In this document: positions 9,001 through 30,000 of the stretch, in pieces | How positions within the stretch are numbered: position 1 is the first letter of the stretch | Layout: the number at the start of each line of letters is the position of its first letter | Assembly (NCBI GenBank): GCA_963848965.1 | Contig: CAWKFG010000004.1 | Coordinates: 288,001 to 352,000 of the forward strand | Direction: 5' to 3' | DNA: 64,000 nt | From: an uncultured bacterium | GTDB lineage: Bacteria; Babelota; Babeliae; Babelales; Babelaceae | Position numbers: made by a program

Positions 9001-12000
9001 TTCCTCTCATTACCTCACGGTTTTGAGCGATTGCCTAAGCTACCCTTAAATAATGTATACACTAGTATTAATACTATTATAAAATGGATTACAATACTTT
9101 GCAAGCTAAACATGCAAAATAAAGGCCTATTAATAAGCCCATAATCAATAACTGCATAATGGATTAGAATCCCACATAAAGCAAGAAGAGCATGCACTAG
9201 TGGATTAAGATCTATTGTAGAACGAAGGTAAAAAGCTGCCATGGTTAAAGGAACCATAACAATAAGGTCTACTCCACAACAACCATTATAGAGAAATGAT
9301 TGAATAACAACTAAACTACCAAGAAAAAAATACTCAAAGACAGGAAGTTTTTTAAAAAGAGCCGTGTAGTACATTGAACGCGTAAAATAATAGGTAGGGC
9401 AGGCAAAAAAGCCCTGAAATACAAGGTCAAGAAAGAAAAGAAAGAGTATTTTCGCGTAATGAAGAACGAGCACCGTATACATAGCAATCCTATTTGCACA
9501 TATTATTAACAAATGGTATCTTTATACTATAAAGACAGAATAATAAAATCAACTCTTTATGCTTCAAGCTAGAGTTCTTATGCTCAATTATATAGTACAG
9601 TTTACTTTTATCAGTCTTGCTATTACGCTCTCTACTACTTTAGGGGTACTCTTTTATATAACACAGAGCCCATGGGTAGACTTTTCTGTGCTTGAACATT
9701 ATAATCCAGGAAAACCTTCTATTGTACTTGATGATGAAGGAAAAGAGTGGACTCGCTTCCAGCTTGACAGACGCGAGCCTGTTCACATAAAAGATATACC
9801 TGATCACGTTATAAAAGCCTTTTTAGCTGCTGAAGATTGGAACTTTTTCAAGCATTCAGGTCTCTCTTTTAAAGGAATTATCCGCTCCCTCTTGGTAAAC
9901 ATTTACAATGGGCGTAAAGTACAAGGGGCAAGTACTATTACGCAACAACTCGTACGACTTCTCTATTTTGATGCTGAAAAAAGCTTTAAACGTAAAATTA
10001 AAGAGCAATTGCTTGCTATTATTGTTGAACGGCAATTTACAAAAGAGCAAATTCTTGAAACATATCTTAATCATGTCTACTTTGGCTGTGGAATTTATGG
10101 CATTGAAGCAGCAAGTCAACGTTTTTGGAACAAGCATGTTAAAGATATTTCACTTGATGAAGCGGCTGTACTTGCTTCTATTGTACAATTACCTCAGCGC
10201 TACTGCCCTTTATACCACCCCGATGCAACACTTAAGCGCCGTAATACTGTATTATTTAAAATGCGTAAACTAGAGTTTATAACACAAGCAGAGTATGATA
10301 CTGCCTACCAAAAACCTGTAAGCGTTATTAAGAATGACACTGCTACACGAGCTCCTCACCTGAAAGAAACAATTCGTCTCTTTTTAGAAGAGCTTGTTGG
10401 CAAGCATAAACTCTATTCAGGGGGCCTTAAAATACAGACTACTTTAAATCTTAAAATGCAAGAAGAAGCTGAAAGAATCTTTGCCGACTATTTTAAAAAA
10501 TTTCATGAAACAATCTCACCCCAGCTTGAAGGAGCACTACTCTCTATTGATGGATTTACTGGTGGTATTAAAGCGCTTATTGGAGGATGTAACTTTCAAC
10601 AGTCTCAATTTAACAGAGCATTAAAAGCACGACGCCAAATGGGCTCTACCTTTAAGCCCCTTGTCTATGCCACTGCGCTTGTCTGTGGCAAAAACTTTGC
10701 AGATGTTGCAATTGATGAACCAATTACGCTTATTGATAATGGACATGAATGGAGTCCTAATAATGCTAATCATAGATTTGAAGGACCGATGACGCTCGCT
10801 CGCGCCCTTATATTATCAAATAACAGTATTTCTATAAAAACATACTTAGAGGTTGGACCTGAGCGCGTTGTACACTTAGCACAACGATGTGGGATAAAAG
10901 GAGCTACTCATCCCTATCCTTCACTTGCCTTAGGATGTGTTGATGGCACACTTTCTGAAGCAGTAGTGCTCATTAATATGTTTGCTCATCAAGGAATTTT
11001 GGTAGAACCACATTGCGTAGTATGGGTCAAAGATGAATGGGGTAAGAAAATGTGGCGCTATGAAGGAACAAAAAGGCGAGTTTTAAATCCGCGCGTAAGC
11101 GGCCAAGTTGCTAAAGTACTTTCACTCTCTTTAGAAAAAGCACGCAAAAGGGCTCCTCATCAATGGCTTTCATGTGACGCTTTAGGAAAGACCGGAACAA
11201 CAAACGATGCTCGTACATGCTGGTTTACCGGCTCTACACCAGAGGTCACTACCTCTGTTTATATAGGTTGCGATGACAATAGACCTCTTGGTAAAAATGT
11301 ATTTGCTTCTAAAACATCATTTTTTATATGGCGAGATTTTACCAAAACAATTAAAAATACTATAAAAAACTTTTCTTATGATCCTGCATTACATGAGGAA
11401 ACTATACATGCTATTACTGGTCAACTTTGCTTAGCTGATGATCCGCATGCACTTACTATTTTAAAGAATTAAAAAAATATTGCTCTTCTGACTATTGTTT
11501 TCTTATTCTTAAATAACCACACATTTAAGAGAGCAAAGGAGCATTATGATACACAAAAAAAATATTTTTTTTCTTGTACTAAGTTTAGCAAACTGTATAA
11601 CTATGAGCGCACGACAAGAAGTTAAGAAAGCTTTTATTGTCTCAGGTCCTAAAAGCGGTACTCATCTTGCAGCAAAACTAGCAAAAAAACTTATGAAAGG
11701 CCGCTATAAAAATGCTACTAAATTTCATGATTTTAATATGAAAGAGATACAAAATTTATCTTCAAATACTATCTATCTAAGTCATGCTCCCTGCATTGCT
11801 AACTATACGGAATTTTTTGAAAGAGAACACATACGAGGCATTTTTATCTACAGAGATCCGCGAGATCAACTCATATCAAGTCGTCAATGGATCTACCAAC
11901 ATCCTGCTGTATGGCCAGAATTACAACATCTGCACCCTGATGACCTTCTTCTTACGCTCATCAATAACTATCCATGGGCTTACCCCTTTGGCACGAAAAG

Positions 12001-27000: not shown

Positions 27001-30000
27001 ATAGGAATTGCAGTAGACTCTATCATAGAAAACGCTATCTTAATTTCGCTATCAGGAACATAATCAGCAGGTGTATCGGTAACATGCCATAATACATCTA
27101 AGAAGAAGCTCACTTTCCCTGGACTTCTATCAGGATTACGCGCTACTACTTGCACCATCCACGGAACATCCTTAAAGTTAACATTCTTAGAAGTTGGTAC
27201 AAAATTCATTTTTAAATCATCTTTAAAAAGATCTATAAATGCTATAGAGGCCCTTCCTAAACCATCTGCATACAACATAGGACCTACAACTGTCACATCA
27301 TATTTTGCATAGAGCGGTAGTATCAAACTACTTAATAATAACAATTTTATCTGCTTCATCTTCTCCTCTTTTGTAATGTTTTATATTTTGTATAGAGCTT
27401 TAAGCAACTTGTTTTCAAAGTGTTTCCTTCAATAGCATTCACATCAGCTAATACTATTTTTTCTGGTTTTGCTAATGTAAGATACTGAGGTTTCAAATTT
27501 TTATATAAAAATTGCTGTGCCCATTTTCTTGCTGCAGGTGCTTTTTCAAGATATGCATCATAGCTGTTGTATACCTCTCTCATCGCTTTTTGTGCGTCTT
27601 CTACAGTACAATTAAGATAATATCCTACACATTTATTAAAGCAGGTATAATACGTTTGTTCTTGTATAAGAGCAGGCACTGCTCTTACAAGTCCTGTATC
27701 ACAAATAGTTTTTTGCGCACTATTGTTAGTAATAATACATGGAATTCCTAGTGCCATAGCTTCACGCGGTGTAAGTGAAAAACCTTCTCCTTTTGAAAGT
27801 AATACATAGCAATCTAAAGACGCTAAAAAATCTCCATATTCTTTTCTTGTAAGCACTTTGTCTATAATTTCAATATTTGTAAGCTTATGACGAGCAATAA
27901 GCGTTTTTAAAGTCGCTGCATAGCCACCACGTCCTTGTAATTTTAATCTTACTCGCTCATCATTGCCAAATTCACGTGCAAATGACTCAATAAGCAGCAT
28001 ACAATTTTTTCTGTCTACAAATTCAGCAGAAACACCAAAAGTAAAGGGAACATTACGCTTTGCTTTCAAAGGCCTTTGAAAAAGATCTTCTGAGCACATA
28101 CCACAAGGAATAACAAAGATAGGAATAGTAACACCCGAATGTATGTATACTTTTTTACAAAATATATCTGGTACTACAACCGCATCTAACCGCTTATTGA
28201 GTATATCTACCCATTCACGAGGAATAGCACTGCCTTCTATCATGGAATATGCTATCTTAATATGACTATTGGGAACATAATCTGCTGGCGTTTCAAATTT
28301 ATGCCACAAAATATCGGTTAAAAGTGCTACTTTACCTGGCTGATTATCTTTCTTTACAAGAATGGTTTGCACACTCAATGGAATATCGCTCAGATCATAA
28401 TCACCAGGGGTGGGAATAACATTTATAGAAAGATCATCTTTAAGGCATTCAACAATACCAAGAGAAATACGAGAAAGACTTGCAGCAAATTTTACCTGGC
28501 CTATAACAGTAAGATCATATGCTTGAACTCCAATGCACCACTGTACAAGGAACACTACTGTCACTCTTTTACTAACTCTCATACTAGTATTTCTCTCCTT
28601 ACCTACTGAGGCTTCTTCTGCAGTGTAGATGTAAATAATAGGTAGTACATGATACTATACTGAAAGATATTTTTACTGACAAGAGAATAAAACCAAAAAT
28701 ATAAAAAAAGAGAGCAGAAAATATCTGCTCTCTTACTCTTATCTATAATTCTGGTACATGAGCTTGTGGTTTACGCCAACTACCGGCCCACCAATGTATT
28801 GCAAGAGTTTCAGGTTTAGAAACTTTGCCTTTTAATACCGTTGCTATAGGATAGCCTAAGTGTTTCGCTTGATGAAAACCAAGTGGATAAAAGAATGTTG
28901 GAGGAAAGATAATATTTCTATGTTGACTCTTAACCCCATATTCCCAAACTACACCACTTAAAAATGCAGGCCCAGTTTTAAATATTATCATATTCTGTTC
29001 CTCTTGCGTTACTCCAGAGCGCAATAGAGTCCACCTATTTTTTAATTTCTTTATATAGCCTTTTACAATAGGATGACCAGGAACAGAGGCAATGAGAGCA
29101 TTATTTACAGATACTTTACGCAAATCTAGTGGCTCAAGTCCTGCATAAAAATCATATGCTTTATGTAAGGTAGTAAACATTTCAGGATTAAGGCATTCAA
29201 AGTCTACATCAACATAAAGGCCACCAAATCTTTCAAGGATCTCCATACGTGCAATATCCGAGCGTTGTCCATAGTTTTTAGATGCATCATAAATACTCTT
29301 ATTTACGAGATTGAGCTTTTCTATATCTTTATCGGTCCACAGTTTGTATTCCCATCCTGGAATTGATTGCCACGTTTGCTGCCATTTTCTATATTTCTCT
29401 GGAAAGGGACTACCAAGCCATATTTGATGCACTATAAGAGGAATACACGGTCTACTTTTAATCGTTGTATTTGTTAGCCTATTCTCTTCATAAAGATCTT
29501 TACAAAATTGATAAAATGCAGAAACTGGTTTTGGACATTCCTCTTCTTTATCTCTCCACGGTAACCTACCATATCTTAAAGAGTTTATTAATGGCCAATA
29601 AAACCTTCCAAAATATGAATCTCCTTTTCCTAAAGAGATTTCAAAAGAAGGACTGTGATCTTGCAAGCTTGCGCCTAATTCAAATGAGATACCAGTCAAA
29701 AAGACTAATAAACGTTTCTTCATGTTCTCCTTTTACTCGTTAAACCTTTCTTCGTATAAAAGCTATGTACTCCCGGATTAGTATTTTTGATTTTAACATC
29801 TTGGGCTTACTGTACCTTTAACCTTTTTACAAGGTCAAGAGATTGTTGACTTCATTGATTCTAGCAGTGTCTAAGCAATCAACAAGATACAACAATTTTT
29901 TAGGTAACGATTTACTCTATACTTTTCTTTTTCGTATCATTAGAAATACTGAAAATTCGTTTTATCTATGAAAGAGTTTACTAAGGATATAGCAATGAAC

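Follow-up and report, generated by a model that had tools for sequence, protein, structure and literature searches.

Gene content of the island

Within the window, by which we mean the whole 64-kb stretch of DNA analysed here, positions 11546–29723 hold an island of 17 genes: 15 transferases, MurG and DciA. The transferases comprise seven paralogous GT4 glycosyltransferases, three DXD-type (GT32-like) glycosyltransferases, two SULT-type sulfotransferases and three methyltransferases. The GT4 paralogs a (16017–17291, minus strand; Glycos_transf_1, Glyco_trans_1_4), b (17393–18631, minus), c (19349–20590, plus) and d (21570–22835, minus) were assigned by Pfam and by membership of a phmmer paralog set, e (23867–25108, plus) and g (27356–28582, minus) by Pfam; f (26139–27359, minus), which starts with the leader MKQIKLLLLSSLILPLYA, was modelled with AF2 (pLDDT 93.9). 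For GT4b the probable start is MRFLIAGYVFSFLFTFYTA, upstream of which the reading frame extends to 18688. The DXD glycosyltransferases 1 (13447–14370, minus; Gly_transf_sug 38 bits, TcdA_TcdB 28.6 bits), 2 (14383–15312, minus; Gly_transf_sug 34.8 bits) and 3 (28743–29723, minus; leader MKKRLLVFLTGISFELGA, AF2 pLDDT 93.0) are all of the Gly_transf_sug/TcdA_TcdB-like type. The sulfotransferases ST1 (11546–12340, plus; leader MIHKKNIFFLVLSLANCITMSA..., Sulfotransfer_1 23.4 bits) and ST2 (20720–21550, plus; 52 bits) are 47% identical to each other.

The methyltransferases are an IRX15/GXM-family enzyme (15338–15982, minus; PF21729 168 bits, TIGR01627 161.7 bits and above its cut-off), an FkbM-type enzyme (22872–23582, minus; Methyltransf_21 69 bits) and a class I SAM methyltransferase (25163–25870, minus; Methyltransf_12 30.2 bits). 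The first of these likely starts at MKKYIYGIGVLSTLSLSLAG; a longer reading frame, reaching 16051, would run into the 3' end of GT4a. The label "plant-type", which an earlier note on this DNA had given it, is overstated: bacteria contribute many members to the GXM-like family, at 45–55% identity. MurG (12346–13374, minus; Glyco_tran_28_C and Glyco_transf_28, TIGR01133 192 bits, under the 250-bit cut-off) and the replication protein DciA (18759–19220, minus; PF05258 48 bits) are housekeeping genes inside the island, and MurG serves as an internal control for the N-terminal features described below.

Judged by alignment, the catalytic motifs of the GT4 and DXD enzymes and the PAPS-binding loops of the sulfotransferases are intact. 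The GT4 family carries two invariant glutamates eight residues apart (E268 and E276 in GT4f); the GT4f model gives GT-B matches to GT4 structures, and the structures matched by the family are bacterial and viral. In DXD glycosyltransferase 3, D172 and D174 are invariant. ST1 possesses the PKSGTH loop, and in ST2 the motifs PKSGT, RDPRDVLIS and RKGxxGxW match stretches of the bile-salt sulfotransferase chain 2qp4_A. Moreover, orthologs in a relative are 69–82% identical (DXD1 78%, P0140; DXD2 69%, P0142; DXD3 81%, P0122; GT4b 73%, P0018; GT4f 80%, P0002; GT4g 82%, P0035) versus approximately 50–60% between most paralogs, GT4a and GT4b reaching up to 71%. A one-to-one correspondence with this relative holds for at least six GT4/DXD orthologous groups; by these identities the paralogs are of old origin and each is conserved in its own right.

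N-terminal leaders and their conservation

The earlier note had described an island of sugar-, sulfo- and methyl-transferases with hydrophobic N-termini, which we can confirm: a hydrophobic leader is present on 15/15 island transferases and on neither MurG nor DciA. A first leader heuristic flagged 11 of the 15, among them GT4g and the class I SAM methyltransferase, and left MurG and DciA unflagged; the remaining four, in which the leader follows a downstream Met or lacks an N-terminal K/R, were judged by eye. On the Kyte–Doolittle (KD) scale the leader core scores 2.97 in ST1, 2.61 in GT4e, whose leader has no K/R, and 2.26 in the weaker leader of DXD glycosyltransferase 2, in which no K/R precedes K8. 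Genome-wide, a hydrophobic core of at least 2.0 is found in 29/31 of the enzymes versus 879/1561 proteins, and of at least 2.2 in 28/31 versus 768/1561 (Fisher p ~1e-5 to 1e-6, with paralogs that are not independent); a stricter charge-bias rule is passed by 18/31 enzymes versus 32–34% of proteins (p = 0.007). Depending on which of these crude rules is used, 32–56% of all proteins have such N-termini, and the available text on a published relative gives predicted signal peptides for 44% of its CDS (PMC6561590). The enrichment by hydrophobicity alone (28–29 of 31 enzymes against 49–56% of proteins) is modest, just as the earlier note had warned, and it is the comparative evidence that carries the case for export. 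Within the window, 0/17 Pfam-annotated cytoplasmic housekeeping proteins were flagged as leader-bearing.

For this comparison 120 sequences were examined in each of the GT4 and DXD families. Where the start of the conserved domain could be located, a leader precedes it in 104/111 GT4 and 88/95 DXD homologs, and across hundreds of homologs its position is conserved while its sequence is variable. The net charge of the flanks is +1.85 on the N-terminal and −0.54 on the C-terminal side; the N-flank is the more positive one in 100 of 112 GT4 sequences (2 reversed, 10 ties) and in 94 of 109 DXD sequences (5 reversed, 10 ties). This positive-inside bias predicts an N-in/C-out topology. The uncharged runs span 14–21 residues (median 16–18), a length intermediate between signal peptides of the usual kind and membrane anchors, and cleavage is therefore uncertain. 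In the AF2 model of GT4f a helix at residues 2–16 (pLDDT 63–68) is followed by a strand at 22–26, the first Rossmann strand, so that the leader is predicted to be a separate, low-confidence helix before β1.

Leaderless counterparts complement this picture. GXM-like homologs with source labels of free-living bacteria (Priestia, Gemmatimonadota, Smithella) start directly at the conserved helix, whereas the close homologs of the island enzyme bear a leader; a second FkbM paralog (G000:C1:372686-373336) has none, and the GalU-type gene product and GlmU are both leaderless. From these comparisons the leader is an add-on to the enzymes. It is also found on enzymes that make donors: UDP-glucose 6-dehydrogenase (UGDH), whose orthologs occur in 185/261 genomes of the order, shows a signal-peptide-like leader ahead of GxGYVG in 27/29 fetched loci as judged by eye, and in many loci (e.g., L028, L029, L032, L037) there is a single ATG ahead of the domain, and it stands before this leader. 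A full-length PAPS synthase (PUA_2, ATP-sulfurylase and APS_kinase) is encoded in 14/261 genomes and bears a leader in 8/8 fetched cases; in at least 10 of the 14 genomes, sulfotransferases with a leader are encoded no more than approximately 10 kb away from it. Homolog conservation, charge bias, leaderless counterparts and the UGDH and PAPS synthase leaders together support the earlier proposal of catalytic domains outside the cytoplasm, even though the donors (UDP-sugars, PAPS, SAM) are cytoplasmic compounds.

Donor supply, site of action and competing explanations

Beyond the island, the genome-wide paralog search returned the four sulfotransferases and seven DXD genes that had been claimed, together with eight GT4-family genes including a 1082-aa double-GT4. 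The UGDH, the GT2 and the two RXYLT1_C-like proteins of the earlier note are likewise present outside the window, as is a four-member weak-GT2 family, and all of these have leaders. Its account of donor supply holds up, too: no APS_kinase, ATP-sulfurylase or S-AdoMet_synt_C was found in this genome, absences that are provisional at 88.7% completeness; NTP_transferase matches are confined to the GalU-type gene and GlmU; and there are five two-domain EamA carriers. Three TLC ATP/ADP translocase genes are also encoded. Bac_transf, Wzy_C and Polysacc_synt (Wzx) were not found; in a search that covered phosphoglycosyl transferase, flippase and polymerase/ligase, with ABC-transporter- and synthase-dependent pathways outside its scope, the genome provisionally has no conventional surface-polysaccharide route.

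We consider it likely that the island encodes Sec-exported, active transferases that use host-derived donors and build a glycan outside the bacterial cytoplasm. Leloir glycosyltransferases, PAPS-dependent sulfotransferases and SAM-dependent methyltransferases would each have gained a Sec-type N-terminal leader that carries them across the inner membrane; UGDH, and in some relatives PAPS synthase, would be moved out likewise. The enzymes would then work in a space in chemical continuity with the host cell, be it the periplasm, the bacterial surface or, once released by the type II secretin or in vesicles, the host cytosol, and would draw UDP-sugars, NAD+, ATP/sulfate or PAPS, and SAM from the host. 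A glycan made in this way would be sulfated and O-methylated as well as acidic, with glucuronate among its sugars. As to its site, we lean slightly toward a coat that covers or surrounds the bacterium, since the one-to-one retention of at least six GT4/DXD groups resembles an assembly line and not a single-sugar modification of host proteins. Export signals on enzymes that depend on cytoplasmic cofactors suggest that an obligate intracellular bacterium makes or modifies glycans beyond its own cytoplasm, with activated donors taken from the host cell; in the literature searched we found no report of exported glycan-building enzymes of this kind.

The same leaders could instead release diffusible effectors into the host cytosol, by Sec and the type II secretin or by vesicles, where DXD enzymes might mono-glycosylate host proteins and SULT-like enzymes sulfate small molecules. 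An outward route, of use to the reading favoured above as well, does exist: the genome encodes three secretins, 122/145 ankyrin-repeat proteins bear a leader whose median length (17 aa) equals that of the transferases, and the RING, MYND and WD40 proteins of the window have leaders too; secretion of such proteins into the cytoplasm of the amoeba was proposed for a cultured relative, as far as the available text goes (PMC4378268). Of the published relatives, one is described, by the same partial sources, in the host cytoplasm (PMC6561590) and one in a vacuole (PMC4378268). Moreover, the island sulfotransferases align best to cytosolic SULTs, members of the DXD family also occur in Rhabdochlamydia, a further intracellular lineage, and the Foldseek matches of DXD glycosyltransferase 3 (TM 0.32–0.44) include the host-protein glycosyltransferases SetA, YeGT, PaTox and TcdA. 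However, the glycan-extending fungal Golgi enzyme Och1 matches equally well, all at low TM (0.40–0.44), and the sequence matches to toxins span only about 40–60 residues around the DXD motif. Seven to nine GT4 enzymes, a GT2, RXYLT1-like proteins, three methyltransferases and co-exported UGDH/PAPS synthase resemble the assembly and decoration of a polymer, and this, together with the one-to-one orthologous groups, makes purely effector-like roles rather unlikely.

That the N-terminal segments are merely anchors, holding the enzymes at the inner membrane face for conventional cytoplasmic synthesis, would agree with their fairly long uncharged runs, with the membrane association of many bacterial glycosyltransferases and with the cytoplasmic GalU and GlmU, by which some donors can be made inside. 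We regard it as improbable: the charge bias strongly predicts N-in/C-out, the soluble UGDH and PAPS synthase have no reason to be anchored, and neither PAPS/SAM synthesis inside nor an initiating phosphoglycosyl transferase, flippase or polymerase/ligase to export a cytoplasmic product was found. Signal-anchored enzymes acting on lipid-linked donors in the periplasm are hard to reconcile with Leloir-type folds, with nucleotide-binding motifs that are intact and with the missing Bac_transf, Wzx and Wzy_C. An artefact of AT-rich composition, wrong starts or crude gene calls, in which the N-termini have no targeting role, could account for the roughly half of all proteins that pass lenient tests and for several island genes that expose a leader only from a downstream Met; the UGDH loci with a sole upstream ATG, the leader position kept over many contigs, the leaderless paralogs and homologs and the unflagged housekeeping proteins render it barely credible.

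Comparison with known systems

In clustering glycosyltransferases with modifying enzymes, the island resembles Wzx/Wzy-dependent pathways. These require cytoplasmic glycosyltransferases and a phosphoglycosyl transferase, flippase and polymerase/ligase, none of which three was found here. Eukaryotic Golgi type II glycosyltransferases and carbohydrate sulfotransferases offer a topological parallel, with an N-terminal hydrophobic segment ahead of a catalytic domain on the non-cytosolic side (predicted here), and Golgi and plant systems likewise combine glycosyl-, sulfo- and methyl-transfer, including a GXM/IRX15-family methyltransferase. Unlike them, the present enzymes belong to a bacterium, and their GT4 members match bacterial and viral structures. 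The eukaryotic versions of UGDH, PAPS synthase and SULT-type enzymes reside in the cytosol, which argues that the leaders were gained in this lineage and not inherited.

SetA/Lgt1 of Legionella, YeGT of Yersinia, PaTox of Photorhabdus and the glucosyltransferase domains of large clostridial toxins share the GT-A fold and DXD motif and match the three island DXD proteins best, both by sequence and by structure; such host-cytosol effectors and toxins use host UDP-sugars. The similarity is local and weak (TM 0.31–0.44, 9–21% identity), though, Och1 scoring equally, and the island proteins are approximately 300 aa long, carry a Sec leader, lack translocation and receptor-binding modules and stand in tandem with glycan-building enzymes. 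Within the lineage, Babela massiliensis and Chromulinavorax destructans have the same kind of leader on ankyrin and other eukaryote-like effectors; the proteins dealt with in the available parts of both papers are ankyrins, proteases, nucleases and hydrolases, with a type II secretin system as the only recognised secretion route, and when that text was searched, neither glycosyltransferases nor sulfotransferases were mentioned in it (PMC4378268, PMC6561590). In Chlamydia trachomatis, according to the portion of the source available, luminal glycogen is made by secreted GlgA and other glycogen enzymes, and SLC35D2 imports host UDP-glucose (PMC4829429). There as here, where export and glycan building are predicted, cytoplasmic-type carbohydrate enzymes leave the cell and build a glycan outside it from host nucleotide sugar. 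The chlamydial enzymes reach the vacuole by type 3 secretion and yield glycogen, whereas the enzymes described here bear Sec-type leaders and form, against that partial account, a far broader set of GT4, GT32-like and GT2 glycosyltransferases, sulfotransferases and methyltransferases together with the donor-making UGDH and PAPS synthase.

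Composition of the island

The island at 11546-29723 comprises 17 genes in a genome of 1.73 Mb (37% GC, 5 contigs, 88.7% complete), with named homologs in Candidatus Babela massiliensis, Babeliales and Dependentiae. As delimited by crude, greedy longest-ORF calling, these genes encode seven paralogous GT4 glycosyltransferases (GT4a to GT4g), three DXD-type Gly_transf_sug/TcdA_TcdB-like enzymes (DXD1-3; 13447-14370, 14383-15312 and 28743-29723, all on the minus strand), two Sulfotransfer_1 proteins (ST1, 11546-12340, and ST2, 20720-21550, both on the plus strand), one methyltransferase each of the IRX15/GXM family (TIGR01627; 15338-15982, minus strand), the FkbM family and class I, as well as MurG and DciA. 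The GC content is 0.33-0.35 in the island and 0.36-0.39 in both flanks, which carry a PBP1a-type transglycosylase/transpeptidase and a P-type ATPase, with UppS, GpsA and a PASTA-domain protein further upstream. The genes murG (12346-13374) and dciA (18759-19220), both on the minus strand, are embedded among the transferases; MurG scores 192 bits against TIGR01133, under the equivalog cut-off of 250 bits.

All seven GT4 paralogs match Glycos_transf_1 or Glyco_trans_1_4 (36-59 bits; gathering cut-offs 26.4-27), and no NCBIfam equivalog reached its cut-off for any of them. The AF2 model of GT4f (26139-27359, minus strand; pLDDT 93.9) has a two-Rossmann GT-B fold, for which Foldseek returned the chlorovirus PBCV enzyme 3oy2, PimA, SdgB, WaaG and BshA (E 1e-13 to 1e-9, TM about 0.5-0.64); many phage and giant-virus glycosyltransferases are matched as well. 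Two glutamates, E268 and E276, which stand eight residues apart and which we take to be the EX7E motif, are invariant across 38 family sequences. Paralogs within the genome are mostly about 50-60% identical (up to 71% for GT4a/GT4b), and for each of GT4f, GT4g, GT4b and DXD1-3 a relative encodes a 1:1 ortholog at 69-82% identity. Elsewhere on the contig (660466-663714) lies a gene whose 1082-residue product has two complete domains of the GT4 family, about 280 residues of linker between them and a single N-terminal hydrophobic segment (hereafter, leader); one homolog of 695 residues (P0096) is a Gly_transf_sug-GT4 fusion.

DXD1-3 score 34.8-38.2 bits against PF04488 (cut-off 23), and the aspartates D172 and D174 of their motif are invariant across 39 sequences. 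The model of DXD3 (pLDDT 93.0) shows a GT-A fold, whose best structural neighbors, YeGT, Legionella SetA, fungal Och1, PaTox and TcdA, are weak ones (TM 0.32-0.44). Strict membership in the toxin/effector family (GT44; SetA/Lgt) was rejected, the similarity being local only and Och1 fitting equally well: phmmer alignments with toxin glucosyltransferases are confined to some 40-60 residues surrounding the DXD motif, superpositions on toxin and effector structures give rmsd values of 4-18 Å at TM 0.31-0.44, and the match to Och1 (9n3s) reaches E 4e-9 but a TM of only 0.40-0.44, like those to SetA and YeGT. In the family alignment, a conserved PDFDxSLGKxDxYF stretch with a nearly invariant F27 follows straight after the leader; in the DXD3 model it forms additional N-terminal helices before the GT-A core. 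Two homologs (P0173, P0186) are fusions of a Branch domain (PF02485, GT14-like) with Gly_transf_sug.

The four Sulfotransfer_1 paralogs of the genome score 23-59 bits (cut-off 22). ST2 aligns with cytosolic SULTs, its PKSGT, RDPRDVLIS and RKGxxGxW segments matching stretches of the solved chain 2qp4_A along with the position of the conserved histidine; the motifs PKSGT, RDPRD...S and RKGxxGxW recur in all four paralogs, and we take the first two to be the PAPS-binding loops. The earlier note had described the GXM-like protein as a plant-type glucuronoxylan methyltransferase. Its place in the IRX15/GXM family stands (PF21729, 168 bits; TIGR01627, 161.7 bits against a cut-off of 149.85), whereas the epithet does not, since the family includes many bacterial homologs at 45-55% identity; as evidence of a eukaryote-to-bacterium transfer it was rejected on the same ground. 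A sequence search for a solved relative of this protein found none.

Leaders on the transferases

The earlier note had pointed out hydrophobic N-termini on these enzymes, and we find them on all 15 island transferases; they are absent from MurG and DciA. Our initial heuristic picked out 11 of them; as to the other four, in the GXM-like protein and GT4b (17393-18631, minus strand) the leader starts from a downstream methionine, and in DXD2 and GT4e (23867-25108, plus strand) it lacks K/R. The note's caution about a high baseline proved justified, as its lenient test passes 723 of 1561 gene calls; our first "strict" signal-peptide rule, with 558 of 1561 proteins flagged, was likewise too lenient to discriminate. 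For 31 such enzymes of the genome, a hydrophobic-core test passes 29 (all proteins: 56%) or 28 (all proteins: 49%), paralogs being non-independent, and a strict charge-bias rule passes 18 against 32-34%. The latter rule is too severe, being defeated by Lys-rich mature N-termini. With simple rules either too lenient or too harsh, we relied on comparative evidence. A published relative is reported to have predicted signal peptides on 44% of its CDS (PMC6561590), and the high baseline is therefore a trait of the lineage.

Within the window, none of 17 Pfam-annotated cytoplasmic housekeeping proteins was flagged (UppS, GpsA, RtcB, archease, LigT, holB-like, Tmk, an AMP-binding enzyme, LOG, KsgA, TnpB-like, HTH, MreB, GlmU, SbcD-like, a HAD hydrolase and a metallo-beta-lactamase-fold protein); among the flagged proteins are PBP1a, two ankyrin proteins, a RING finger, a MYND finger, a WD40 protein and a HAD hydrolase. 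Archease, the RtcB ligase and the LigT-like 2',3'-cyclic phosphodiesterase lie close together in an RNA-repair-type cluster (32594-36334), and the TnpB/Cas12f1-like TNB-domain protein (44347-45279, minus strand; 310 residues) suggests the remnant of an IS200/IS605-type element.

Among homologs, the leader varies in sequence and is constant in its place before the start of the conserved domain: it is kept in 104 of 111 GT4 and 88 of 95 DXD homologs with a locatable domain start (120 examined each, related genomes being non-independent), and some of the DXD sequences bear the label Rhabdochlamydia. The flanks of the GT4 leader carry net charges of +1.85 (N) and -0.54 (C), the N-terminal flank being the more positive in 100 of 112 cases, the less positive in 2 and equal in 10; for DXD the corresponding numbers are 94, 5 and 10 of 109. 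Such charges fit the positive-inside rule and predict an N-in/C-out orientation. Under heuristic rules, the leaders thus combine a positive n-region, an uncharged hydrophobic core and an N-in charge bias, as in a signal peptide or anchor, and small residues at -1/-3 near the core end occur in 29 of 29 leader-bearing enzymes by a permissive rule. In the GT4f model, the leader folds into a helix of its own (residues 2-16, pLDDT 63-68), which precedes the first Rossmann strand (22-26).

Leaderless counterparts are found as well: GXM-like homologs labelled as free-living (Priestia, Gemmatimonadota, Smithella) start directly at the conserved helix, and a second FkbM paralog (contig C1, 372686-373336), the GalU-type gene and GlmU are without a leader. 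The closest GXM-like homologs, mostly without a source label, possess one. Judged from these sequences, the leader is an add-on to the enzymes. We accept export because of the housekeeping control, the conservation among homologs, the charge bias, the GT4f helix and the leaderless GXM-like, FkbM, GalU and GlmU counterparts.

Donor supply within the genome and across the order

Leloir glycosyltransferases, PAPS sulfotransferases, UDP-glucose 6-dehydrogenase (UGDH) and PAPS synthase are textbook enzymes of the cytoplasm (or the Golgi lumen), since the nucleotide substrates they need are found only inside cells. That the genome lacks PAPS and SAM synthesis, as had been noted earlier, agrees with our searches, in which APS kinase, ATP sulfurylase and SAM synthetase were not found at 88.7% completeness. 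The short list of nucleotide-sugar enzymes likewise holds, with GalU, GlmU and a leader-bearing UGDH; besides these, all that an epimerase search returned were frame-broken fragments where the contig begins (5-676); here an NAD-dependent epimerase/dehydratase is spread over three frames, either as a pseudogene or through a contig-end error. The five EamA carriers of the earlier count were recovered, all two-domain, together with three secretins and three genes for TLC ATP/ADP translocases, which show that nucleotides of the host arrive at the inner membrane.

We compared the enzymes across 261 genomes of the order. In the UGDH of the second island (contig C2, 61092-62504) the Pfam domain begins at residue 35, preceded by a hydrophobic leader. 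We found orthologs in 185 of the 261 genomes, and in 27 of 29 fetched loci a textbook-looking leader, judged by eye, immediately precedes GxGYVG, the two exceptions being a motif mis-hit and a fusion protein; at several loci the sole upstream ATG precedes the leader. One locus (L035) holds an 863-residue ORF in which an upstream domain is fused to UGDH.

The sulfotransferase family is present in 44 of the 261 genomes, 31 of which are without a PAPS synthase, and a leader is found on all four paralogs and on 13 of 13 orthologous ORFs (orthologs judged by eye), by which a cytosolic location as in eukaryotic SULTs appears contradicted. Full-length APS-kinase matches occur in 14 genomes and correspond to bifunctional PUA_2-ATP-sulfurylase-APS-kinase proteins, that is, PAPS synthases; in all eight that were fetched, a hydrophobic leader stands, by eye, before the conserved LTxRQLCDLELILNGGFAPL start, one of them having no ATG upstream of it. 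Thirteen of these 14 genomes also carry a sulfotransferase, within about 10 kb of the synthase in at least 10. Leader-bearing PAPS synthases beside tandem leader-bearing sulfotransferases are seen in other genomes of the order (L038-L045, L058:5320-7083, L060:8897-10597), with up to eight such sulfotransferases in L058, and the islands of three other genomes combine the two with GT32/Caps_synth-like, GT92, GT4 and GT2 enzymes. No CysQ-type PAP phosphatase turned up in a search with Inositol_P. From the leaders on UGDH, PAPS synthase and the sulfotransferases, enzymes dependent on ATP, NAD+, UDP-glucose, PAPS or SAM are predicted to be sent out of the cytoplasm consistently across the order. 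For UGDH, PAPS synthase and the SULT-type enzymes we rejected an inheritance of the anchors from eukaryotes, since all three are cytosolic there.

Site of action and precedents

We consider it probable that the enzymes undergo Sec-dependent export and, once outside the bacterial cytoplasm, draw on donors derived from the host; they probably make a glucuronate-containing, sulfated, O-methylated glycan. The exported enzymes may form an assembly line at the envelope or in the pericellular space, for which speak the one-to-one retention of GT4f, GT4g, GT4b and DXD1-3, the co-export of donor-making enzymes and the absence of a conventional surface-glycan route: Bac_transf, Polysacc_synt and Wzy_C, searched for as marks of a Wzx/Wzy-type locus in the 88.7% complete genome, each gave 0 matches, WecA-type and ABC-transporter routes lying outside this search. 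Babeliales are reported to be without LPS genes (PMC4776705, PMC6561590).

Alternatively, the enzymes may be released into the host cytosol, as suggested by the resemblance of the DXD proteins to effectors and of the SULT-like proteins to cytosolic SULTs, and by leaders that ankyrin, RING, MYND and WD40 proteins bear too. An ankyrin query returned 145 proteins genome-wide, 122 of them with a leader, whose median length is 17 residues in ankyrin proteins and enzymes alike; in Babela, secretion of such ankyrin proteins into the cytoplasm of the amoeba has been proposed, with type II named as the sole secretion system (PMC4378268). The window itself holds a run of eukaryote-like proteins (three ankyrin, one zf-RING, one zf-MYND, one WD40; 47877-49889 and 62031-63416 on the plus strand, 50780-51673, 52295-53092, 55974-57296 and 60888-61862 on the minus strand), five of the six flagged as leader-bearing.

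More tentatively, and with the odds somewhat against it, periplasm and pericellular space may act as a Golgi-like compartment in which the exported line builds a sulfated, methylated acidic glycan coat on the envelope. Host ATP, UDP-glucose, NAD+, SAM and PAPS would enter by diffusion across the outer membrane, donors would be regenerated locally by leader-bearing UGDH (in some lineages also by PAPS synthase), and the exported GT4, GT32-like, GT2, sulfo- and methyltransferases would assemble the coat directly on the envelope of an energy parasite that has neither LPS nor a Wzx/Wzy route. If true, such a periplasmic, Golgi-like arrangement would be categorically new; in the searched literature we found no bacterial description of Leloir glycosylation outside the cytoplasm. 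Searches combining Dependentiae, TM6 or Babeliales with glycosyltransferase, sulfotransferase or signal peptide yielded nothing relevant, those on Rhabdochlamydia and glycosyltransferases gave matches that looked unrelated from titles and abstract openings, and the text of published genome descriptions of the lineage mentions neither enzyme class, while their supplementary tables could list such genes.

The order-wide Sec leaders imply that either a part of metabolism has moved into a host-fed space or host glycans and sulfation are remodelled by a large secreted set. In both cases UGDH, PAPS synthase and the GT4 family are directly testable candidates in cultivable relatives, and an explanation is offered for the surface dressing of the LPS-less Babeliales. 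The closest functional precedent is Chlamydia, whose secreted glycogen enzymes use host UDP-glucose in the inclusion lumen; it differs in relying on type 3 secretion and in making one simple polymer (PMC4829429). Either outcome would extend this sole well-studied precedent from luminal glycogen to complex sulfated, methylated glycans.
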